Assembly (NCBI GenBank): GCA_000995185.1
Contig: LCET01000001.1
Span: 169,028 to 213,180 of the forward strand
Length of the DNA: 44,153 bases
From: Candidatus Woesebacteria bacterium GW2011_GWC1_42_9
GTDB lineage: Bacteria; Patescibacteriota; Microgenomatia; UBA8517
Reading direction: 5' to 3'
The position numbers and the translations under genes are program-made. Positions 4,671-20,919 of the stretch are shown piece by piece. The first letter of the stretch is position 1, and every line of letters begins with the position of its first letter. Under the pieces are notes generated by a model that saw only the letters and a list, made by a program, of their open reading frames with translations, was not told where the DNA came from and did no database searches.

Positions 4671-5713
4671 TGCGAGGAAATTTAGGTTTAGTTTTTGCGG
4701 TCGCAGTATTAACCGCGACAAGCGTCATTGTACTTCAGTCGATCGTCCCTTTTATTTTTCCGCAGTATTATTTTTATATAGCATTAGGAATTGTGATGTT
4801 TATAGTTTTCTCCTTTATTGATTTTAGCGTACTTTCCGCTTTTTCACCTCATCTTTATGTGGCCAGTATTGTATTTTTACTTCTTCCTTTTCTGGTAGGT
4901 CAAGTTACCAGGGGGGTCGTGAGATGGGTCGGGGTGGGAGAGCTTACGATCCAACCATCTGAAATCGTCCGTCCATTCCTTATCCTTTTTTATGCAGTTT
5001 ATCTCGCAAAAGAGGATAAAGTTAGACTAACTGCCGTAAGAACTGGAAAAGCGTTAATATTTCTGTTCATTCCCTTTATTTTAATTTTGCTTCAGCCGTC
5101 GCTTGGGGTGGCGGTTTTAACTCTGATTGGTTTTTTTGGAGTGTTCTTGTCCCTTAATTACGACAAAAAAATATTACCAGTGGGCATGCTGATTTTTATT
5201 ATTGCCCTCCCGGTTTTTTGGCTCGTGCTTGCGCCTTATCAAAAATTAAGAGTTATTACGTTAATAAACCCGATGGCGGACCCTTACGGTGCCGGTTATA
5301 ATAGTATTCAGTCGGTGATAACGATAGGAAGCGGGGGAGTGTGGGGGAAAGGATTAGGGAAAGGAGTTCAGACTCAGCTTGAGTTTCTCCCAGAGCGGCA
5401 TACAGACTTTATTTTTGCAAGCATTGCTGAAGAAATGGGCCTAGTTGGCGCTTTATTTGTTCTTTTAGTTAGTTTTTTTCTTTTATATCAAATTATTGTC
5501 CCGATCCAAAAGGGCGGTAATTATCTGGAGAGAGCATTCCTATCGGGAATATTTCTAACTCTATTTACGCAAGTGGCTGTGCATGTCGGGATGAATATGG
5601 GTTTGGCGCCAATTACTGGTTTGCCGCTCCCCTTGGTTTCCGCCGGTGGATCATCATATCTTGCGACGATGATTATGCTTGGAATAGTTGCCAGGGTGCG
5701 GGTTCTCGCGTAA
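4670..5713 (+). CDS. rodA: SEDS family peptidoglycan polymerase (RodA/FtsW), probably RodA
   Basis: Multi-TM; RW...IQPSE, GYNSIQS..IGSGG..GKG, LPERHTDFIF, PITGLPLPLVSAGGSS; ATG overlaps ileS TGA. Confidence 0.88.
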   Translation: MRGNLGLVFAVAVLTATSVIVLQSIVPFIFPQYYFYIALGIVMFIVFSFIDFSVLSAFSPHLYVASIVFLLLPFLVGQVTRGVVRWVGVGELTIQPSEIVRPFLILFYAVYLAKEDKVRLTAVRTGKALIFLFIPFILILLQPSLGVAVLTLIGFFGVFLSLNYDKKILPVGMLIFIIALPVFWLVLAPYQKLRVITLINPMADPYGAGYNSIQSVITIGSGGVWGKGLGKGVQTQLEFLPERHTDFIFASIAEEMGLVGALFVLLVSFFLLYQIIVPIQKGGNYLERAFLSGIFLTLFTQVAVHVGMNMGLAPITGLPLPLVSAGGSSYLATMIMLGIVARVRVLA

Positions 5714-10049: not shown

Positions 10050-10746
10050 CCGAGATTGCGACCTCCGATTCGTTTCCGGCAAGGTCGACGACTAGAAAAT
10101 TTAAGGTATTTTCTCCATCGCTTAGGGTATAGGGATGAGAGAATTTTCCTCCTCCTCCGACCACAATCACTCTTTCATTTATTGTGACACTGGTCTCAAG
10201 CTCTGTTTCGCCCTCAATTGTGATTTGCTTATCTTTTCCAAAGAAGCTTTGTCCGTTTTTGGGATTAGTGATATTGATTTCAGGTTTAGTAATGTCATAG
10301 CTTATGTTGTAAGTTTGGGTAGGTTTGCTTGTATTGCCCCCTTCGTCTACTGTAACTGCGGAAAGTGAATTTTTATCCCTTGTGAGAGTGAAGGAACTTG
10401 AGAAATCGCCGTCGATATCCGTGAGAATTTCTTTTTCTGTCCCATTTAGTGTAATAATAACCTTCGACTCTGGCTCAGCACTTCCTTTTACAATCAGCCG
10501 CGGGTCATTTGTCTGCTCTGGCAGAGAGTCTATTTGGGGTGGTGCTGGGGGGGTATCATCGGTGACTTCGAAAATGGGCGAGCGGCCAGTTGCACTAGCC
10601 AGTAAATTGCTAACCTTCGCTGTCAATGAAAATCCATAGGTAAAGATAAAGATAATCAGCAACACCGTAAGAGCGCCAAAAACAATAACACTTCGACGGT
10701 TCTTTTTTTCTTCGGTCCTTGTGAGACGCGAATAATATTTTGCCAT
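10033..10746 (-). CDS. Membrane-anchored protein with two bacterial Ig-like domains
   Basis: N-terminal TM; DDTPPAPP, G.AEP...V.I, AVTVDEGGNTS, DITKPEINI, VDLAGNES. Confidence 0.8.
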   Translation of the reverse strand: MAKYYSRLTRTEEKKNRRSVIVFGALTVLLIIFIFTYGFSLTAKVSNLLASATGRSPIFEVTDDTPPAPPQIDSLPEQTNDPRLIVKGSAEPESKVIITLNGTEKEILTDIDGDFSSSFTLTRDKNSLSAVTVDEGGNTSKPTQTYNISYDITKPEINITNPKNGQSFFGKDKQITIEGETELETSVTINERVIVVGGGGKFSHPYTLSDGENTLNFLVVDLAGNESEVAISVSYSP

Positions 10747-11362: not shown

Positions 11363-11377
11363 TTTCCTTTGGAAAAG

Positions 11378-11421
11378 TGGTATACTGGAGCAGTCCCCCA
11401 GACATTGGGGGAAGTTTTTTT
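11378..11421 (+). promoter_or_regulatory. Extended -10 plus hairpin/T-tract before typA
   Basis: TGgTATACT 11378-11386; TCCCCCA-gacat-TGGGGGA 11394-11412; T7 11415-11421. Confidence 0.55.
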
Positions 11422-13281
11422 ATGAATATGAGTGAACAAAAAGATAAAAGGAATATTGCCGTTATTGCCCATGTAGACCATGGCAAGACAACACTAGTGG
11501 ATGCTCTTTTGAAACAAACTCATACTTTTCGTGAAAATGAGGAGGAGATGGGGAAGGAGCAAATTATGGATTCAGGCGACCTTGAACGTGAACGAGGGAT
11601 TACTATTTTGGCCAAAAATTGTGCAGTTGATTATAAAAATACGAAGATAAATATTATTGATACGCCTGGTCACGCGGATTTTTCAGGTGAAGTTGAACGA
11701 ACATTAGGAATGGCAGAAGGAGCACTTTTGATCGTGGATGCTCAAGAAGGACCGATGCCGCAAACAAGGTTTGTATTACGGCGTGCTTTGGAACTGGGCT
11801 TAAAGATTATTGTCGTGATTAATAAAATTGATAAAAGGTTTGCTCGCGTTCCTGAATCGGTATCTAAATTGGAAAGCCTTTTTTTAGAATTAGCAAAGGA
11901 TGAGTCTCAGCTTGATTTTCCGATAATTTATGCCATCGGGAGGCGCGGGGTTGCGTTTAATACTTTACCTGAAGATATGGAACAAAAGGGAGATATTACT
12001 CCACTTCTTGATTTGATCATAAGTCATGTACCGGCACCTAAAAATTCTCCTCTGGGGACTTTTAAAATGGTGGTTACTACGCTTGATTATGAGCCTCATC
12101 TTGGACAGATCGCTATCGGTAAAATTTTTAGAGGCAAGCTAGTTAAGGGCGAGAAAGTAATTGTCACTAACTCGCCTGGGAAAATATATAAAGTAGAGAA
12201 GGTTATGGTCCCTCGGGGCCTGGGAAGAGTTGAAGTCGAAGGCGCTGAGGCAGGCGAAATAGTGGCCATAGCCGGCGTTGATAATCTTAAAATTGGCCAA
12301 ACAATTTCTGATCCTAGTGATACGACCCCGCTTCCGGAAATCGCAGTTTCACCACCCACTTTGCATATCACCCTTGGTCCAAATACTTCCCCCCTGGCAG
12401 GCCAGGAAGGAGAGTATTCCACCGGCAGGCAAATTGAGGAAAGACTTAGAAAAGAAATAGAAACAAATCTAAGTTTAAAGGTCGAGGCACTTGGGAACGG
12501 TAAGTTTAAGGTGTCTGGAAGAGGTGAGCTTCATCTGGCGATCTTACTGGAGACTCTTCGGCGTGAAGGCTATGAAATGGAAGTCGGTAAGCCCGAAGTT
12601 ATTCTCAAAAAAATTGATGGAGTACTAAAAGAGCCGGTGGAAGAGGTAAACATTATTGTCCCTCAGGAGTTTGTCGGAGTTATAAATCAAGAAATGGGTA
12701 AACGGTATGCAAAAATTCTTAAAATGGAGGCGATTTCTGAGGAAGAAACAGAATTTATCTATCAATTCCCGACTCGCGCTATGATCGGCCTCCGCGGCCT
12801 ACTTTTAAATCTCACCAAGGGGACAGTTGTCATGAGTTCGCAAGTAATTGCCTATGAAAAAATTGGTCGGGAACTACCAAAATTAAGGCGTGGAGCATTG
12901 ATTTCGCAATCCTCAGGATCTGCTTTGGCTTATAGCCTTGAAACCGCCCAAAATCGAGGGATCACTTTTATCGATCCGGGAGAAACTGTCTATGAAGGGA
13001 TGATCATCGGCCAAAATGCGAAAAACGAAGATATTGAAATAAATGTATGCAAGGGTAAAAAACTGACAAACATGAGGAGTAAATCTTCGGACGGGATTAT
13101 CCAGTTGACCCCAGCCACGAAGCTTTCTTTGGAACAATCGCTTGATTTTCTGGAACGTGATGAGCTATTGGAGATTACCCCAAAGAGTTTGCGCTTAAGA
13201 AAAAAACATCTTACTGTTTTGGCCCGAAGGCGAATAAACCGCGCCGCCCGCTCGAGCCAAGCCACCCAAGCGATGATTTAA
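11422..13281 (+). CDS. typA: Translational GTPase TypA/BipA
   Basis: RNIAVIAHVDHGKTTLVD, ERERGITILAK, DTPGHADF, GRGELHL, KKLTNMRS, LEITPKSLRLRK; start revised to ATG 11422. Confidence 0.98.
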   Translation: MNMSEQKDKRNIAVIAHVDHGKTTLVDALLKQTHTFRENEEEMGKEQIMDSGDLERERGITILAKNCAVDYKNTKINIIDTPGHADFSGEVERTLGMAEGALLIVDAQEGPMPQTRFVLRRALELGLKIIVVINKIDKRFARVPESVSKLESLFLELAKDESQLDFPIIYAIGRRGVAFNTLPEDMEQKGDITPLLDLIISHVPAPKNSPLGTFKMVVTTLDYEPHLGQIAIGKIFRGKLVKGEKVIVTNSPGKIYKVEKVMVPRGLGRVEVEGAEAGEIVAIAGVDNLKIGQTISDPSDTTPLPEIAVSPPTLHITLGPNTSPLAGQEGEYSTGRQIEERLRKEIETNLSLKVEALGNGKFKVSGRGELHLAILLETLRREGYEMEVGKPEVILKKIDGVLKEPVEEVNIIVPQEFVGVINQEMGKRYAKILKMEAISEEETEFIYQFPTRAMIGLRGLLLNLTKGTVVMSSQVIAYEKIGRELPKLRRGALISQSSGSALAYSLETAQNRGITFIDPGETVYEGMIIGQNAKNEDIEINVCKGKKLTNMRSKSSDGIIQLTPATKLSLEQSLDFLERDELLEITPKSLRLRKKHLTVLARRRINRAARSSQATQAMI

Positions 13282-13512
13282 GAGCTGGTCACCGTACTTT
13301 GCTCGAACCTATTTAGCCAGGATGAGTATATCAAAGGATATCTACTCGACCCCGATTTGCCACTTATTACCAAAGTAAAAATCGGTCTTTACTACTACAT
13401 CACCAGTGACCTTATTTTACAACTAAACGTATTTAAAGACTATCTTGAGAAAATAAATCCATTTCTATTTTTAGAAGTATTTGGTAAACGATGCAAGGAT
13501 CAAAAATATTAA
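13282..13512 (+). repeat. Cassette end B, copy 1 (start-less 76-codon open frame)
   Basis: Direct repeat of 15605-15844; translates ELVTVLCSNLFSQDEYIKGYLLDPDLPLITKVKIGLYYYITSDLILQLNVFKDYLEKINPFLFLEVFGKRCKDQKY*. Confidence 0.9.
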
Positions 13513-13571
13513 TGAGTGATTAATAATTTCAAGGTTCATTTGCCTTTGGCAAAGTTAACATACCCAAAAAT

Positions 13572-14522
13572 TTAAACTATTTCAACACTTTTATTCCAAT
13601 ATTCATCAAACGCTTTCTTTATTTCATCATAGTTCTCAGTCAGGTTTATTTCTGACCTTTGACCTGACGAAATAGCATTAACGTTTGGTACATTTCTCGC
13701 ATAATCCACATCATCAATAATCCAACGATCGTGAGCATCTCGAACTAGTTTGCTGTCAATGGTAGCCCAGGAAACATCGATATTCTTATTAGCCATTTCT
13801 TGCTTAAATCGTGTAAGATCTTTCCGAGCAGTGGTATTAAGATTGCCTTCGCCCAGGTCTAGGGATATTATGCGTATTTGCTTAATTTTACTAGCATCAG
13901 CAATAGCCCAAAGCCACTCAAGAGCCTCTTTTTGAAAGTGCTTATCAAGCCAGTAGATGCCACCTTCGCATTCACCCAGTACCTTTTTTATCCACATGAT
14001 ATTAGAGAAAGGACGATTAGGATCTATAAATATATTTCTTGGTGTTTGAGGAGAGTCGGGAGAAATCAAAATACGTACAATCCGTGTTTTTTTATTGTAA
14101 TTAATAATTTCCGCATAATTCATGAAGTCTAGCAAATGCGTAAGTGGTTCTCGCGAATCATAAAACCAAAATCCCGTTGTTTTTAGAACCGTTAAAACTT
14201 GCTCAACTGTTATATTGGCAACTCCCCAAAGATATTGTTGTATGGCAATAGTTGGAGGGTAAAATAGAAGCATTTGTTTGAGCAACTCTTTTTCCCCACC
14301 ATCACAACGGATAAAGAGTGACTCAAAAATAGCTCTACCCAATTCAGACAATTCACCAGTTGCCGAATCACTGAAAACACCTAGTTCTTCCCAAAAAAGG
14401 TAGTCGTCTCCTAGATCAAGATGGCTAATCGCCCCAGTTTCGCCAGCAGTTCTTATGTAGGGTAGTACCTTTTTCCAATTAGTTTTTGGGAGAAGTATCG
14501 TCTTTTCTGTTGTTTGACTCAT
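13572..14522 (-). CDS. Hypothetical protein: probable wHTH-like N-terminus plus PLD-fold (HDR-type) nuclease-like domain
   Basis: ELSELGRAI wHTH-like wing; C-terminal 'IYWLDKHF...IRIIS...AHDRWIIDD' pattern of PLD-like domains. Confidence 0.6.
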   Translation of the reverse strand: MSQTTEKTILLPKTNWKKVLPYIRTAGETGAISHLDLGDDYLFWEELGVFSDSATGELSELGRAIFESLFIRCDGGEKELLKQMLLFYPPTIAIQQYLWGVANITVEQVLTVLKTTGFWFYDSREPLTHLLDFMNYAEIINYNKKTRIVRILISPDSPQTPRNIFIDPNRPFSNIMWIKKVLGECEGGIYWLDKHFQKEALEWLWAIADASKIKQIRIISLDLGEGNLNTTARKDLTRFKQEMANKNIDVSWATIDSKLVRDAHDRWIIDDVDYARNVPNVNAISSGQRSEINLTENYDEIKKAFDEYWNKSVEIV

Positions 14523-15282
14523 GTTTTTTGATTTCCACTTCTACTGCTTTTTCCAATGCAGACATTTGGTCCCTGAACGTACCCATATTGAAAGCAAATT
14601 GGAGGTTCTTAGGGTACGATAGAGCGATACCACTAGGGAATTCAACTGTAATCATCTCTGGTCGCACATTTGTAATTGGAGCATAACTACCTTTAGTTTC
14701 GTTTTTTAGAGGATTGGCATGAGTTTGTACAGGATCATTATCAATACCAACTTCATCATCCTTAACTAAAATTTCACTTGAGACAATTCCATTCTGATAA
14801 ACACCTGCGTATTCAATGGACTTGCGAAAGATGTTTGCCACGTTATCTGCAACCTTCTGACCAATTTTATGGCTACGCACAAGAATACTGCTTAGTGCAG
14901 TAGGCACTGCATGGCCGGCAAACTCATTAAGAAGCGTCTTGTATAGTTTTGGAGCTGTAACAGCTAACTGTTTAGCTGTTTGGAGATCATTATCGTCAAT
15001 CGGGTGTGCAAAACTGAGGGAGAGGTCAGTATTTCGATAGGCATTGCCTTCTCGACCAAGTAAGCCAAAATGTACAAGAGAGGCAACTTTCATTCCAACT
15101 GGGCCAGTTACTTTTTCATAACCCATTTCCTTAACAGCGTTATCCCTACTAAACGCTGACTTACTAAACGCTGTTTGAAGCTTAGCGCTATAGTTAATAG
15201 CATCTTCAAGCGTAATTGATGGATAAGATGCACTACGTTCTTTTGTTTTCACTTGTTTAGTGGTTGGTTGTTCTTCTGTCAT
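14479..15282 (-). CDS. Hypothetical protein, probable winged-helix DNA-binding protein
   Basis: 'SYPSITLEDAI...MGY...VASLVHFGLL...YRNTDLS...PKLYKTL' pattern; overlaps the downstream gene by 44 bp. Confidence 0.6.
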   Translation of the reverse strand: MTEEQPTTKQVKTKERSASYPSITLEDAINYSAKLQTAFSKSAFSRDNAVKEMGYEKVTGPVGMKVASLVHFGLLGREGNAYRNTDLSLSFAHPIDDNDLQTAKQLAVTAPKLYKTLLNEFAGHAVPTALSSILVRSHKIGQKVADNVANIFRKSIEYAGVYQNGIVSSEILVKDDEVGIDNDPVQTHANPLKNETKGSYAPITNVRPEMITVEFPSGIALSYPKNLQFAFNMGTFRDQMSALEKAVEVEIKKHESNNRKDDTSPKN

Positions 15283-15314
15283 AGATTTACTTTCTTTAAT
15301 AACTTTATTTAATC

Positions 15315-15344
15315 ATTTTACATCAGGAAAATACCACTTGTCAA
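15315..15344 (-). promoter_or_regulatory. Promoter for the 267 aa/316 aa operon
   Basis: Minus strand TTGACA (15344-15339), 18 bp, TAAAAT (15320-15315). Confidence 0.65.
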
Positions 15345-15465
15345 CACTGTTCTATGTGTTGTTCTTTGGCTAGTCTTAACATATCCTGGGTAAAAGATAA
15401 TAATTCGGTATAGTTGTGATAATAATGATATAGAACACTGGTAAATTAATAATTTTGTATTAACT

Positions 15466-15608
15466 CTAGTACGTAGGTCCGACTCCGGTTATCGGTATGA
15501 TTTTTTCCAGGCTAAATATAAGACGTTAAAAATAGTGGCTAGAACTCGGGATAATGTTGATTTATTGAGGGAAATTGGAGAAAACACAAAACCATTTCGC
15601 TATTGAGC
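15466..15608. repeat. Cassette end A, copy 1 (non-coding)
   Basis: Aligns with 19800-19941 through blocks CTAGTAC, AGGTyCGAyTCCsGTTA, TCCAGGCTAA, GGCTmGAACTCGGGAkAATsTTGATTT, ACAAAAC, CGmTATkGAGC. Confidence 0.85.
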
Positions 15609-15844
15609 TGGTAACCGTAATTGGCTCGGACCTATTTAGCCAGGACGAGTATATCAAACAGTATCTACTCGACCCCGATTCGTCACTTATTACTAAAATA
15701 AAAATAGGTCTTCGTTACTACATTACAACTCAGCCTGAGTTAATTTTACAGCTTACCGTTTTCAAAGGCTACCTGGAGAAAATCAATCCGTTTCTATTTA
15801 TGGAGGTATTCGGTAAAGATCGCGAAGATAGAAAAATATGGTAA
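15575..15844 (+). CDS. Small conserved junction protein spanning the A1|B2 junction (end B copy 2 = 15605-15844)
   Basis: Roughly three-quarters amino-acid identity to the B1 frame, ~16 synonymous differences and an in-frame 6 bp indel; start uncertain (TTG 15575 or ATT 15602). Confidence 0.65.
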   Translation: MEKTQNHFAIELVTVIGSDLFSQDEYIKQYLLDPDSSLITKIKIGLRYYITTQPELILQLTVFKGYLEKINPFLFMEVFGKDREDRKIW

Positions 15845-16115: not shown

Positions 16116-16952
16116 ATGGCAAAAAAGAATCAATCTAAAAGATTAACTAATCAACATAAAGAATCCCAAGGTGCAGTTGGTATATTTGGAGACGAGGCAA
16201 AGTTCCACGATACAACAGTTAGTAAAATTTCACATCTTGTAATTGAGCAACTTGAAAATGAATTTCCTAAATTAACTTTTAGGCATAGGACAGCAATAAA
16301 AAAGAATGAGATAAACGAAGCATTAAAGAAAATTGATCCAGAATTAGGGCAAACCCTTTTTGTATCAAATTCAAGCATTATCCCAGACGGCGGAATAATT
16401 GAAGTAAAAGATGATAACGATATTTGGAGAATATTGCTTGTAACAGAAGCTAAGCATCAAGGAAAAGATATTGAAAATATCCAAAAAGGAAATTTAGTTG
16501 GCAAAAATAACAATCAAGACTTGATGGCAGCTGGTAACGCAATAGAAAGATCGCATAAAAATATATCAGAAATCGCCAACTTTATGCTACATGAATCCCA
16601 TTTCCCTTATATCTTATTTTTGGAAGGATCAAATTTTCTTACTGAAACTATTTCAATTAAGAGACCAGATGGAAGGGTGGTTACTCTTGATTATAACTCA
16701 GGCATGTTAAATAGATTAGATAGATTGACTTCTGCAAATTATGGAATGCCAATTAACACAAATTTATGTAAAAATAAATTTGTTAAACACAAAGATAAAA
16801 CCATTATGCTTCAGGCAGCTTCGATATATACGCAAGGTAATGGTGAAAAATGGGATGTAAGAGAAATGCTTGACATTATGATTGAGATTTCAAAAACCTC
16901 TCTTCAGGTATTAGGAAGTGAGATATTTAACCAGATAACTAAAGATAAATAA
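16116..16952 (+). CDS. ecoRIR: EcoRI-family type II restriction endonuclease (predicted GAATTC)
   Basis: Full-length close similarity to R.EcoRI: PDGG...EAK catalytic motif, LMAAGNAIERSHKN recognition arm, NRLDRLT. Confidence 0.96.
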   Translation: MAKKNQSKRLTNQHKESQGAVGIFGDEAKFHDTTVSKISHLVIEQLENEFPKLTFRHRTAIKKNEINEALKKIDPELGQTLFVSNSSIIPDGGIIEVKDDNDIWRILLVTEAKHQGKDIENIQKGNLVGKNNNQDLMAAGNAIERSHKNISEIANFMLHESHFPYILFLEGSNFLTETISIKRPDGRVVTLDYNSGMLNRLDRLTSANYGMPINTNLCKNKFVKHKDKTIMLQAASIYTQGNGEKWDVREMLDIMIEISKTSLQVLGSEIFNQITKDK

Positions 16953-16968
16953 CCAAAACCATTTGATT

Positions 16969-17988
16969 ATGGCAAGAAAAGCGACAAATAAATTACTGCA
17001 AAAAGCTAAAGAATCAAAGAGCGATGAATTTTACACTCAGCTTTCTGATATTGAAAATGAATTAAAGCATTATAAAGATAGATTTAAAGATAAAGTAGTT
17101 TATTGTAATTGCGATGACCCTAGAACTAGCAACTTTTATGAGTATTTTTCCTCAAATTTCAAAGAGTTGAGGCTAAAAAAAATCATAGCCTCTTGCTACA
17201 GAAAGCAAGAAAGAGATTTATTTAATAATAAAGAATTTGAAAGTGGGTTTTTTTATGAATATTCAGGTACTCAGGGCGAAAAAATAAAACCAAGCGCTAA
17301 TGATATAATCCACTTTAAAGGAGACGGGGATTTTCGTAGTTCAGAAAGTATAGAATTATTGAAACAGGCGGATATTATTGTAACCAATCCACCATTTTCA
17401 TTATTTAGGAAATATGTAGATCAATTAGTTAAATACGATAAGAAATTTTTAATAATTGGCAACATTAACGCTATTACCTATAAAGAAATTTTTAAACTAA
17501 TTAAGGGAAATAAGGCGTGGCTAGGAATAAATTTAGGTAGAGGTATCTCAGGTTTTATTGTGCCAGAACATTATGAACTTTACGGAACAGAGGCACGTAT
17601 TGATAGCCTTGGAAATAGAATAGTTTCCCCAAATAATTGTTTATGGTTAACTAATTTAGATACTTCTAAAAGACATGAAAACATTACTCTTACAAAAAAA
17701 TATTTTGGAAATGAAATCGAGTATCCATATTATGATAACTACGATGGAATTAATGTAAATAGAACAAAAGATATTCCTCTGGATTACGAAGGTGTTTTGG
17801 GCGTACCCATAACTTTTTTACATAAATATAACCCAGAACAATTCGAAATAATTAAATTCAGAAAAGGAAATGATGAAAAGGATTTGTCAATAAACGGTAA
17901 ATGTCCGTATTTTAGAATTTTAATCAAGAAAAGAATACAAAAAAATAGAACTGACGACACAAAAATATTAGTTAGTGATTTGTCTTAG
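16969..17988 (+). CDS. ecoRIM: EcoRI-family adenine-specific DNA methyltransferase
   Basis: MARKATNKLL.KAK.SKSDEFYTQ, YCNCDDP, GDGDFRSSES, TNPPFSLF; start revised to ATG 16969. Confidence 0.96.
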   Translation: MARKATNKLLQKAKESKSDEFYTQLSDIENELKHYKDRFKDKVVYCNCDDPRTSNFYEYFSSNFKELRLKKIIASCYRKQERDLFNNKEFESGFFYEYSGTQGEKIKPSANDIIHFKGDGDFRSSESIELLKQADIIVTNPPFSLFRKYVDQLVKYDKKFLIIGNINAITYKEIFKLIKGNKAWLGINLGRGISGFIVPEHYELYGTEARIDSLGNRIVSPNNCLWLTNLDTSKRHENITLTKKYFGNEIEYPYYDNYDGINVNRTKDIPLDYEGVLGVPITFLHKYNPEQFEIIKFRKGNDEKDLSINGKCPYFRILIKKRIQKNRTDDTKILVSDLS

Positions 17989-18026: not shown

Positions 18027-18518
18027 TTATTCTCCCAACTCTCCAGTAGTTCTAATTGGATCACCTATCAAAATCGAGTGAAACTCATCCTCTGGCAAAC
18101 GTTCTCTTTTAAATACTTGCCATCCTAAGTCGTAAACCGTCTTCATATTCCAAATGTGATGTTTGTGTAATGTAACTAGATCGTGTAAATAAATGGCTCC
18201 AGGAGCATTTTCGCTCTCTATTATTCTAAACTTATTGCCGTATTCATTAATTGGATACTTTTCTCGGTAATACTTAATGCTTCTTTTCCGTGCCAGTTCA
18301 TCTCTAAAATAAGAACTACCAAAATATGCACCAATGATAGCTGCTAAACCAATACTAATTTTGTTGAAGTTGTCAGCTATTGCATTTAGATTTTCTAAGG
18401 GGAGAAAAAAATGGGCAAGTACAAAGATTAAGAAGGATATAATCAGGAAAGCCTTGTAGGTTTGGACCTGTTTTCTGAATTTTTTCCAATTTTTCTTAAA
18501 CCTTTTCTTGTTTAACAT
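18027..18518 (-). CDS. Hypothetical membrane protein (2 TM plus small beta domain)
   Basis: Two hydrophobic helices, then 'IYLHD...KHHIWNMKTVYDLGW.......EF.SI.IGDPI'. Confidence 0.7.
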   Translation of the reverse strand: MLNKKRFKKNWKKFRKQVQTYKAFLIISFLIFVLAHFFLPLENLNAIADNFNKISIGLAAIIGAYFGSSYFRDELARKRSIKYYREKYPINEYGNKFRIIESENAPGAIYLHDLVTLHKHHIWNMKTVYDLGWQVFKRERLPEDEFHSILIGDPIRTTGELGE

Positions 18519-18526
18519 ATTTATTT

Positions 18527-19762
18527 TTATGGAAAATGAAACAGCAATACAGTAAGTAGCAATTCTCTTTTCGTGTCGACATTCAGGTGAAATCTGAATC
18601 TTTGTATTGTTCCTTCTGCTTCTTCACTCTCTAAATTTATAAAGTTACTATGCTTTTTTGCAGCTTCTCTTGCCGTAGTTATTACATTAGTGAAGTCAGC
18701 ATTTCTTACGAAGACCATAATTGAGGCTTTAGAATCTCTCCAAGTAAGATATTTGAGTATTTGGTCGATAGTTTCAATAAACTTCTTTTCCCCTGTCCAA
18801 AATTTGCACTCGGCAATAAAAGTGTTATTTCCGTCATGTCTAAGTAAAATATCTGTTTTACCCGATTTATTGAACGTTTCACCCGTAGCTGATCCTTCAA
18901 AGTTGGTTTCTAGAATTATTAGAAAATGATCTCGCAGTCCTTCTTCATCTTTGTTGGTATAAACAGCCGGCATTCTTTCAATCTGTTTTCCCATATCGTG
19001 GATAACACGAAGTATTGCGTTATATGTTTCAGTATCTAGAGTTGGATCTGGGGTTCCAGAATTGCTTGGAGATGGTCTCGGAATAATTTTCTTTTTAGCT
19101 TTCGGAGCAGGAATAGAAAATGTGCTCGGAACGTTATCTCTTTTTTTGACGGGGACACCCAACTGGTCCAAGAAACTATTATTAGATTTCAAGCTTTCTT
19201 TTCTTTCCTTAAGCAACATCCTAGCATTCTCTGATAAGCTTGCATTGTAATTATTTACTTCGTTTGCAAGATTTCCAAGCTGTTTTTGTAAATTGGAAAG
19301 ATTTTGGTCTGAGTCTCTTTTTGTTTTTTCGGCATCATTGGTGAAGTTAATAATCTCAAAACATAAAAACTCTCCATCATCATTAATTTCATGATCAAGC
19401 TCGATGGTCCATAGAAGTGATGTACTTGGTTTGAAGTTTATTACTTCAATCTCGCCGTTGAAGGGTAAGTGGTATTTAATAGCTTGCCTTGGATAAGATT
19501 TATTGTCAGTAATAAAAAAACTTTCTCGAGGATGTCTGTCAGCAGGAATCATTTTTTCTTCATGGGTTATAAACTTGTTTTCGATATCTAGTATTGGAGG
19601 ATCTATAGAAAACTCAGAAACTAAATGTTCAACATATTCATTCTCGTTTATATTCAGAATGTAGCCTGTCTCTTCTGAGTGAATTTTGTTTTTGAGTTTC
19701 TCCTTTTGGGAGCGCAAAACATCTCCAAAATACCCTTTAGTGAAGGGAGTAATAGTACTCAT
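18527..19762 (-). CDS. Hypothetical protein with coiled coil and C-terminal PD-(D/E)XK nuclease-like domain
   Basis: EEGLRDHFL...GETFNKSGKTDILL...FIAECKFW...DQILKYL. Confidence 0.72.
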   Translation of the reverse strand: MSTITPFTKGYFGDVLRSQKEKLKNKIHSEETGYILNINENEYVEHLVSEFSIDPPILDIENKFITHEEKMIPADRHPRESFFITDNKSYPRQAIKYHLPFNGEIEVINFKPSTSLLWTIELDHEINDDGEFLCFEIINFTNDAEKTKRDSDQNLSNLQKQLGNLANEVNNYNASLSENARMLLKERKESLKSNNSFLDQLGVPVKKRDNVPSTFSIPAPKAKKKIIPRPSPSNSGTPDPTLDTETYNAILRVIHDMGKQIERMPAVYTNKDEEGLRDHFLIILETNFEGSATGETFNKSGKTDILLRHDGNNTFIAECKFWTGEKKFIETIDQILKYLTWRDSKASIMVFVRNADFTNVITTAREAAKKHSNFINLESEEAEGTIQRFRFHLNVDTKRELLLTVLLFHFP

Positions 19763-19799: not shown

Positions 19800-19941
19800 C
19801 TAGTACAGGTTCGATTCCCGTTACCAGTGTTGCGACTCTCCAGGCTAACGCAATTTTTGCAAAATATAAGGCTCGAACTCGGGAGAATCTTGATTTTAGG
19901 GGGAGATTTTTAACTACTACAAAACTAGTCCGATATGGAGC
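19800..19941. repeat. Cassette end A, copy 2 (abuts tRNA-Gly 3' end)
   Basis: Homologous to 15466-15608; holds a perfect 14 bp inverted copy (19808-19821) of tRNA-Gly 19947-19960. Confidence 0.85.
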
Positions 19942-20009
19942 GGGATACGGGAATCGAACCCGTGTCTCTACCTTGGGAAGGTGGCGTACTACCATTGTAC
20001 TAATCCCGC
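19936..20009 (-). tRNA. tRNA-Gly(CCC)
   Basis: Acceptor GCGGGAT/ATCCCGC, loop TTCCCAA, T arm ACGGG-TTCGATT-CCCGT, ends TCCA; one C-A mismatch in anticodon stem; TGtTATAAT at 20030-20022. Confidence 0.95.
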
Positions 20010-20704: not shown

Positions 20705-20778
20705 GTAGTGATTTTGCCGATCTTTCCATCACTTTAATGGATTAAAGTATTGAGGGGATAAAGATGATTTTATATGGG

Positions 20779-20852
20779 CGAGGCTGAGGGGATTTGAACC
20801 CCTGATCTCTTCCGTGACAGGGAAGCGCTTTAAACCGCTAAGCTACAGCCCC
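20779..20852 (-). tRNA. tRNA-Asp(GTC), canonical
   Basis: Acceptor GGGGCTG/CAGCCTC, CTTCC-CTGTCAC-GGAAG, G73, C38. Confidence 0.96.
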
Positions 20853-20919
20853 AAAACACCTTATTGTACAATTTTTAGCCTAATTATTCCAGAATTTAAA
20901 AAAAAGGGGGGGTTGAGGT

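Follow-up and report, generated by a model that had tools for sequence, protein, structure and literature searches.

The inverted repeat at the tRNA-side end of the second of two gene cassettes beside a tRNA-Gly gene is one copy of a conserved, position-fixed motif, here called the A box. Since its sequence does not follow that of the target, the A box is not a programmable guide. The best explanation, which we hold tentatively and with a little less than even confidence, is that it represents an inverted second copy of a recombination core in an attP-like site, served by a recombinase acting in trans.

The window, that is, the whole stretch of 44,153 nucleotides that was analysed, lies on contig C1 of a host genome of 894 kb (19 contigs, 96% complete). 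Two head-to-tail units fill the space from the typA stop codon (typA, 11377-13281) to the 3′ end of tRNA-Gly(ccc), each starting with a stretch of about 230 nt, termed B, and ending with a stretch of about 130 nt, termed A (Table 1). B1 and B2 are 86% identical over 122 nt and 75% identical over 100 nt, the A modules form direct repeats on both sides of cassette 2, and no further copy of A or B was found elsewhere in the same genome. The cargo of cassette 2 includes, beside the EcoRI-type pair, a 411-aa protein (18527-19762, minus strand) whose full length is covered by a match to the PADLOC candidate system PDC-S54. The 316-aa protein of cassette 1 has a homologue in 2 of the 139 genomes of the order, its own included, and is therefore of no use for tracing cassette moves. 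The B1 ORF follows the typA stop codon without a gap and in the same frame (13279-13284); the gene order downstream of typA is not common to 10 orthologous loci in relatives, where no tRNA-Gly or B-start lies within 1.5 kb downstream, so that these loci provide no empty-site comparator. Further along the window, ARAGORN called two tRNA-Asp(gtc) genes, at 20775-20853 and 32751-32827, that are unusual both in length (79 and 77 nt) and in where the anticodon lies (36 and 39).

Table 1. Features of the cassette array between typA and tRNA-Gly(ccc), in window coordinates.
Feature	Positions	Strand	Basis
tRNA-Gly(ccc), site adjoining the cassette array	19936..20009	-	ARAGORN; Rfam tRNA, 65 bits
A2 module, type-1 A-end of cassette 2, 128 nt from box to junction	19808..19935	+	
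A2 box, 22-nt inverted tRNA-Gly-like T-loop/T-stem/acceptor motif	19808..19829	+	Weight-matrix score 32.1
Second conserved box of the A2 module, TCCAGGCTAA	19839..19848	+	Exact in 34/45 type-1 A-ends
Third conserved box, GGCTCGAAC, direct partial copy of the B-start core	19870..19878	+	15-sequence alignment
A1 module, type-1 A-end of cassette 1 (A box 15476-15497)	15476..15602	+	
B2-start, decayed tRNA-Gly 3′ end in the orientation of the real tRNA, then element-specific core	15603..15634	+	
B2 small ORF, 79 codons from the junction, long form, conserved family	15605..15844	+	Codon-position entropy
B1-start and B1 small ORF, directly after the typA stop codon	13282..13512	+	Similarity to B2
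Cassette 1 cargo, two genes (316 aa and 267 aa), no family match	13572..15282	-	
Cassette 2 cargo, EcoRI-type restriction enzyme and methyltransferase	16116..17988	+	PF02963, E=3e-148; PF13651, E=2e-128
Cassette 2 cargo, 163-aa protein and 411-aa PDC-S54 candidate defence protein	18027..19762	-	PDLC05036, E=1.4e-139

An earlier note on this DNA had singled out positions 19808-19821 as a perfect inverted repeat of the neighbouring tRNA gene, and these are indeed the exact reverse complement of 19947-19960 in the T-arm of tRNA-Gly(ccc). A scripted search showed that this is the sole perfect inverted pair of at least 14 nt with a loop of at most 200 nt in the 44-kb window, and the same search in 30 mononucleotide shuffles returned none. 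In the 894-kb genome the 14-mer occurs at just these two sites, and its first 11 nt, corresponding to the T-loop core, occur seven times. The proposed extension of the repeat to 16 of 17 positions does not hold, as 19807/19961 and 19822/19946 are mismatched and the comparison of 19808-19827 with 19941-19960 gives 17 matches out of 20. The matches said to link the same segment to the donor end of the cassette were reproduced: GTTACCAG (19820-19827) is the exact complement of CTGGTAAC (15608-15615), and the reverse complement of TCCAGGCTAA agrees with B2 (15636-15645) at 9 of 10 positions, the agreement with the B1 equivalent (13313-13322) being 9 of 10 too. All three matches are above chance in the window, yet they are features of the family and not special to the A2 copy. 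Thus, the matches of one segment to both target and donor are real, but the "hybrid" look stems from the homology of the target and the donor with each other, since the donor junction (the B-start) is itself a decayed tRNA-Gly 3′ end. The T-loop part of the A box is true, as in the tRNA, and its acceptor-like part resembles the commonest B-start variant. The perfect match of 14 nt arises here because the T-arm version of this tRNA-Gly(ccc) equals the box consensus.

The A box (consensus aGGTYCGAYTCCCGTTACCGGTA) is a 22-nt motif resembling, in inverted orientation, the T-loop, the 3′ strand of the T-stem and the acceptor strand of tRNA-Gly, and it opens a conserved module of about 127 nt that forms one cassette end, the type-1 A-end. 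A weight matrix built from 25 A-ends was scanned over the fetched loci and gave 48 hits; after removal of two hits with scores under 21 and of L019, a true tRNA, 45 distinct type-1 A-ends were left; six more were seen and stay outside the 45 (automatic junction and length filters). The same 22-nt box comes first in all 45, and the score of the A2 copy is mid-range. In 40 of these ends the junction lies 126-129 nt from the box, in four 116-117 nt and in one 120 nt. The second box, TCCAGGCTAA, is present at 9 or more of its 10 positions in 38 of the 45, and its inverted counterpart in B reaches at least 9/10 in just 20 of 81 B-starts. When 15 modules were aligned, the three boxes, the columns of GGCTCGAAC among them, were found to be invariant or nearly so, although the mean column identity of the alignment as a whole was only 52%. 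The type-1 order, A box, TCCAGGCTAA, GGCTCGAAC and a junction 116-129 nt from the start of the box, fits both copies in the window. At every type-1 junction the A box is separated by about 105 nt, containing the two other conserved boxes, from a tRNA-Gly 3′ end or a mimic of it.

A second, unrelated type of cassette end, of about 45 nt, also adjoins tRNA-Gly genes and B-starts and carries no inverted tRNA-like box. Ends of this type were seen in L014 (about 5513-5560 and 10092-10140) and also in L017, L018, L045, L068, L070, L081, L121 and L122.

Similarity searches at the DNA level detected B, or A together with B, in 7 of 60 relatives, and in the relative regions that were fetched the elements adjoin tRNA-Gly genes with the anticodons ccc, tcc and gcc. 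A search with the pattern of the constant part of the B-start, with one genome per species, returned 101 stretches, and a full B-start was present in 71 of 105 matches. The 71 all come from MAGs of the candidate phyla radiation (CPR) type, assigned to Woese-, Shapiro-, Davies-, Gottesman-, Levy-, Collier- and Blackburnbacteria, WWE3 and Pacebacteria or, for some bins, carrying other labels, and the remaining matches are chance hits in unrelated genomes; patterns of the A module gave additional copies in genomes and metagenomes. Judged by coordinates, a complete tRNA-Gly gene adjoins 23 of the 45 type-1 A-ends (nine ccc, nine tcc and five gcc), an exact B-start adjoins 11, and a tRNA-Gly fragment or a diverged B-start adjoins the other 11. 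One further copy (L097), beyond the 45, abuts tRNA-Thr(cgt), so that the tRNA is left intact at the near end of the cassette in 23 cases of tRNA-Gly and one of tRNA-Thr.

The opposite, far end of the cassette is marked by the B-start, in which the 3′ part of tRNA-Gly is repeated directly, in decayed form and with the polarity of the real gene. Over its first 10 nt the B-start is nearest to tRNA-Gly, among 15 tRNA types, in 75 of 76 copies, with no mismatch in three copies, one mismatch in 24, two in 46 and three in two. After about 13 nt this variable, tRNA-like part gives way to a constant, element-specific core. In four loci, L105 (minus-oriented, 5574 onward), L094, L224 and L020, a type-1 A-end is followed by just 14-25 nt of a tRNA-Gly 3′ end and then by unrelated DNA, which hints at a crossover about 13 nt or more inside the tRNA-like part. 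In its commonest variants the B-start (15610-15616 in the window, and the equivalent positions) always has GGTNACC, a palindrome interrupted by one free base that is at the same time the synonymous third position of a codon.

The codons concerned belong to a reading frame that begins at the junction (NTG GAG CTG GTN ACC ...) and remains open in almost every B copy. The pseudo-tRNA-Gly end supplies the first codons, and the start codon arises at the junction itself. The fetched loci contain 81 distinct copies. A long form, of about 77 aa, was counted in 34 copies, and a short form, of 33-52 aa and mostly 35-47 aa, in 32. After codon 11 the entropy by codon position follows the order 3>1>2 (1.15/0.87/0.66 and 1.51/1.19/0.87 for positions 3, 1 and 2), and this small ORF is therefore a real small gene. 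Its product was matched by no entry of Pfam, PHROG or NCBIfam; AlphaFold predicts an all-helical structure with a mean pLDDT of 70 (moderate confidence), and a Foldseek comparison of the model with the PDB returned no match. Longer proteins containing the small ORF number just two (164-173 aa), and no fused forms were found.

The relation between the box and its neighbour was analysed at individual junctions. At tRNA junctions (n=12), the summed identity of each box to its own tRNA was 171, compared to 170.4±3.2 after shuffling of the tRNA partners (p=0.50), and at B-start junctions (n=11) the match to the own neighbour was likewise unremarkable (p=0.70; p=0.80 when G-T pairs were allowed). 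Enlarged sets gave p=0.25 for 34 non-B neighbours and p=0.55 for 11 B neighbours. The box is essentially fixed across three tRNA-Gly isoacceptors with different T-stems, one tRNA-Thr and the pseudo-tRNA B-starts; in L016, for instance, the T-stem of the tRNA differs and the box does not follow it. For the A2 box, the comparison with the sense strand of the adjacent tRNA-Gly gives 17 of 22, the top value in a range of 13-17, and among the 48 tRNAs of its own genome this neighbour is the best match, the runner-up reaching 14 of 22. The earlier note had named, as an outcome that would refute its reading, a segment that stays fixed across homologues while the target changes, and this is what the junctions show.

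These results bear directly on the readings that place the function of the segment in RNA. The look of the A2 copy, one segment complementary both to the tRNA and to the B end of the cassette, is what favours a programmable transcript of the bridge-RNA or seekRNA kind, with loops reading target and donor. In addition to the absence of covariation with the target, RNAalifold on 15 modules gave -2.4 kcal/mol on the plus strand, essentially just a long-range stem between the box and its neighbour, and no consensus fold on the minus strand (14 modules in the correct orientation, L016 being reversed). Neither A nor B has an Rfam family at E up to 1, and no DEDD_Tnp_IS110 (PF01548) or Transposase_20 (PF02371) domain was detected in the 96%-complete genome, where the controls were detected. 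A bridge-RNA-like guide is very unlikely, and we give the programmable reading as a whole hardly any credence; the guide-like RNA of the earlier note falls with the lack of a conserved fold, of an Rfam match and of an IS110-family gene. The alternative of a control at the RNA level, in which the A module would be a leader into the small ORF and the A box would pair with codons 2-10 and mask the start, so that the small protein would be made just in certain arrangements, seems improbable. It draws on the start of a coding small ORF at the junction (NTG GAG CTG ...), on the position of the A module directly upstream of this ORF on the same strand and on a promoter-like site at 15526-15555 that points into B2. 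However, the consensus folding energy is the low one given above, the promoter-like hexamers are not conserved in the alignment, promoter-like sites are about as numerous as in shuffles (20 compared to 19.5), and about half of the modules precede a tRNA instead of the ORF; the stretch was present in 20 runs (Logan contigs), none of them RNA.

The two readings at the DNA level that compete with inverted recombinase-binding arms can be weighed against the same family of junctions. A folded single-strand attachment site, in which the A box would pair with the B-start of its own cassette in a single-stranded circular form of the cassette, appears unlikely. Such a site would have arms of 7-9 bp and 10 bp around an unpaired bubble, topped by a hairpin of about 105 nt; it would mimic the duplex 3′ end of tRNA-Gly, and a host tyrosine recombinase would exchange one strand, with replication completing the process. 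This reading would explain cassettes without a recombinase, and it agrees with the presence of an inverted pair at fixed spacing, with arms that pair at 12-17 of 17 positions when G-T is allowed, and with a variable tRNA-like part of the B-start that ends where the bubble would begin. The DNA fold of A2 with the tRNA beats that of shuffled sequences (z=-2.78; 1 of 200 shuffles as good), but A1 with B2 shows no such advantage (z=-1.26; 21 of 200). The pair of interest is formed by the box and the B-start of the same cassette, because an excised circle would join them, and for 20 such pairs the sum with G-T was 302, against 296.6±2.3 for shuffled pairs (p=0.024, one of several tests run and not robust), and without G-T 268, against 264.2±3.0 (p=0.13). 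Unusual variants of the box meet matching unusual B-starts in L119, L061 and L020; however, kinship of the copies and a common history of both ends could give the same trend. Furthermore, no compensation with the adjacent partner was found, 5 of 24 junctions show a C-A mismatch where the first arm has its single variable position, and the sequence itself is conserved, not the structure alone. The genome holds no Y1 (HUH) gene, no machinery that would make single strands was identified, and type-2 A-ends carry no box. Quite improbable, in turn, is a functionless relic or homology patch, a leftover inverted tRNA fragment in cassettes that would be swapped by homologous recombination through their A and B modules. 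The failure to find a recombinase, the A modules that flank cassette 2 as direct repeats and the abundance of B repeats in the source metagenomes (depth 26-94, compared to about 9) are in line with it, but a relic would not stay near-invariant at a fixed distance in at least 45 copies while the rest of the module has diverged to the mean column identity given above. A broader combination of these elements, which we consider rather unlikely, would be an integron-like system of Microgenomates CPR bacteria anchored at tRNA-Gly, in which recombinase-less cargo, defence and other, carries two inverted mimics (A box and B-start) that fold in single-stranded DNA into a replica of the end of the tRNA gene and are recombined by a host-encoded enzyme, expression of the small ORF requiring the joining of an A module to a B-start.

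Of the three possibilities raised in the earlier note, ordinary inverted recombinase-binding arms are therefore left as the leading reading, with the folded CTXphi-like site weaker and the guide abandoned. Conservative site-specific recombination at a tRNA-Gly 3′ end is consistent with the sequence comparisons: the tRNAs are intact at the near end, decayed copies of tRNA-Gly mark the far end and the cassettes are stacked in tandem. In the mechanism that we propose, the A module and the B-start together would make up an attP-like recombination site, in which the A box would be an inverted extra core half-site, one of three boxes of the TCGAAC type. As duplex DNA, the A box would be bound by the same recombinase that recognises the core of tRNA-Gly or of the B-start, and this binding may help synapsis or set the directionality of the reaction. 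The enzyme would be supplied in trans by the host or by a helper element, and new cassettes would enter at the tRNA or at a resident B-start, giving rise to a tandem array. Complex att sites are large and contain several boxes in both orientations, and the putative attP-like site described here, of about 240 nt or more with several boxes in both orientations, resembles them in this respect. Against the proposal stand the lack of a recombinase tied to the cassettes and the position of the A box upstream of just 11 of 72 B-start junctions, along with the existence of the second A-end type; the box is consequently not needed for a cassette to sit there. The weak trend towards complementarity between a box and the B-start of its own cassette would also suit strand pairing better than protein binding.

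The search for an enzyme covered the window, the genome and the fetched loci. Neither cassette of the window contains a recombinase gene, and the four tyrosine recombinases and one large serine recombinase of the genome lie on other contigs. In about 100 fetched loci of 8 kb no recombinase was found save large serine recombinases in two of them, L015 and L016. In L015 a broken large serine recombinase gene (13301-15438) abuts tRNA-Gly(tcc), with a B-start 6.5 kb away; the broken gene may be a decayed autonomous relative of the cassettes, or a different element at the same tRNA end. Large serine recombinases occur in 6 of 8 genomes with B elements, the own genome included, compared to 38 of 61 overall, and their link with the cassettes is not specific, the genes being common with or without B. 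The only large serine recombinase of the genome that contains the window (545 aa; L026, G000:C2:55887-59339) reads with its 3′ end into tRNA-Asn and is probably a separate element integrated at that tRNA. In four DNA runs from the source metagenomes the contigs break at the B repeats. Joints with a likeness of at least 90 were seen at 13487>15525, 13506>15502 and 15631>13308, with short sides or extra letters between the two parts, and probably come from the copies of other organisms; no clean excised circle or empty site was seen in these four runs.

The closest known kind of structure is a tRNA-seeded island built by repeated integration, as in the tycheposons of Prochlorococcus. The report describing them places these elements at tRNA 3′ ends, with partial tRNA copies between tandem elements, expects newer arrivals next to the tRNA and counts an own tyrosine recombinase in 474 of 501 (10.1101/2020.12.28.424599). 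The cassettes share with them the location at a tRNA 3′ end and B-starts that are partial copies of tRNA-Gly, and differ in having no recombinase and in carrying an end module of 127 nt with an inverted box and a small ORF that starts from the partial tRNA copy. With tRNA-targeting integrative elements more generally they have in common the intact tRNA and the direct repeat of its 3′ end, whereas no integrase lies inside the cassettes. No description of the A and B modules was found in the literature searched (supplementary files apart), and what is novel over known tRNA-seeded islands is the conserved end module, the junction ORF and the lack of an own integrase.

Elements that rely on the recombinase of their host offer a second comparison. 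At one end of integrated CTXphi, the attP(+) site contains two core-like sites in opposite orientation, separated by about 100 nt. IMEX elements are described as exploiting the host XerCD (PMC3442271, PMC4246890, PMC6744903). Like both of these, the cassettes lack a recombinase of their own, possess two inverted core-like sites and form tandem arrays; in contrast, their sites mimic the 3′ end of tRNA-Gly and not dif, and they contain no filamentous-phage or rolling-circle genes. In integrons, cargo cassettes poor in promoters and without an own recombinase are arranged in arrays, with R and L boxes of the form GTTRRRY. The attC site is an imperfect inverted repeat at one end of the cassette that spans the junction with the next unit and is conserved in its structure rather than in its sequence. 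The arrays of recombinase-less cargo and the imperfect inverted repeat across the junction recall integron cassettes with their attC sites (PMC4792948), but there is no IntI or attI at the array in the window (the four tyrosine recombinases of the genome being elsewhere, as stated), no core of the GTTRRRY type was seen, the sequence is conserved and the array is anchored at a tRNA. The pdif modules of Acinetobacter plasmids are presented as recombinase-less gene modules whose bounding recombinase sites alternate in orientation (PMC7399989). Around the cargo of the cassettes, the B-start and the A box are similarly inverted with respect to each other, but these sites are not dif-like, the setting is chromosomal and tRNA-anchored, and the conserved stretch of 105 nt has no counterpart there. 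The likeness to the bridge or seek RNA of IS110/IS1111 elements, one segment matching target and donor, is superficial in view of the differences in gene content, RNA fold and target covariation reported above.

CPR bacteria have tiny genomes and little is known on how they gain genes, and the arrays described here, in CPR bacteria of the Microgenomates type, amount to a widespread, modular stacking of accessory genes, mostly of the defence type, beside tRNA-Gly. What looked like a guide for target and donor is a motif that stays fixed, and nothing points to an RNA-guided mechanism. The identity of the enzyme would show whether the reading as duplex or as folded DNA applies and would explain the trade in defence genes among streamlined cells; a possible yield is a compact recombination system that targets a tRNA gene.

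Copies were also sought in viral contigs, where one of nine hits to the B pattern was a true B-start, associated with a type-2 A-end, and where neither of two hits to the A pattern had an A box and no recombinase homologue lay nearby. In L015, L016, L019, L020, L031, L033, L067 and L093, the cargo or the immediate surroundings of the cassettes include a recurring protein of about 278 aa that is BRO-N/anti-repressor-like; its L019 copy matches PHROG 15286 with E=8e-87.
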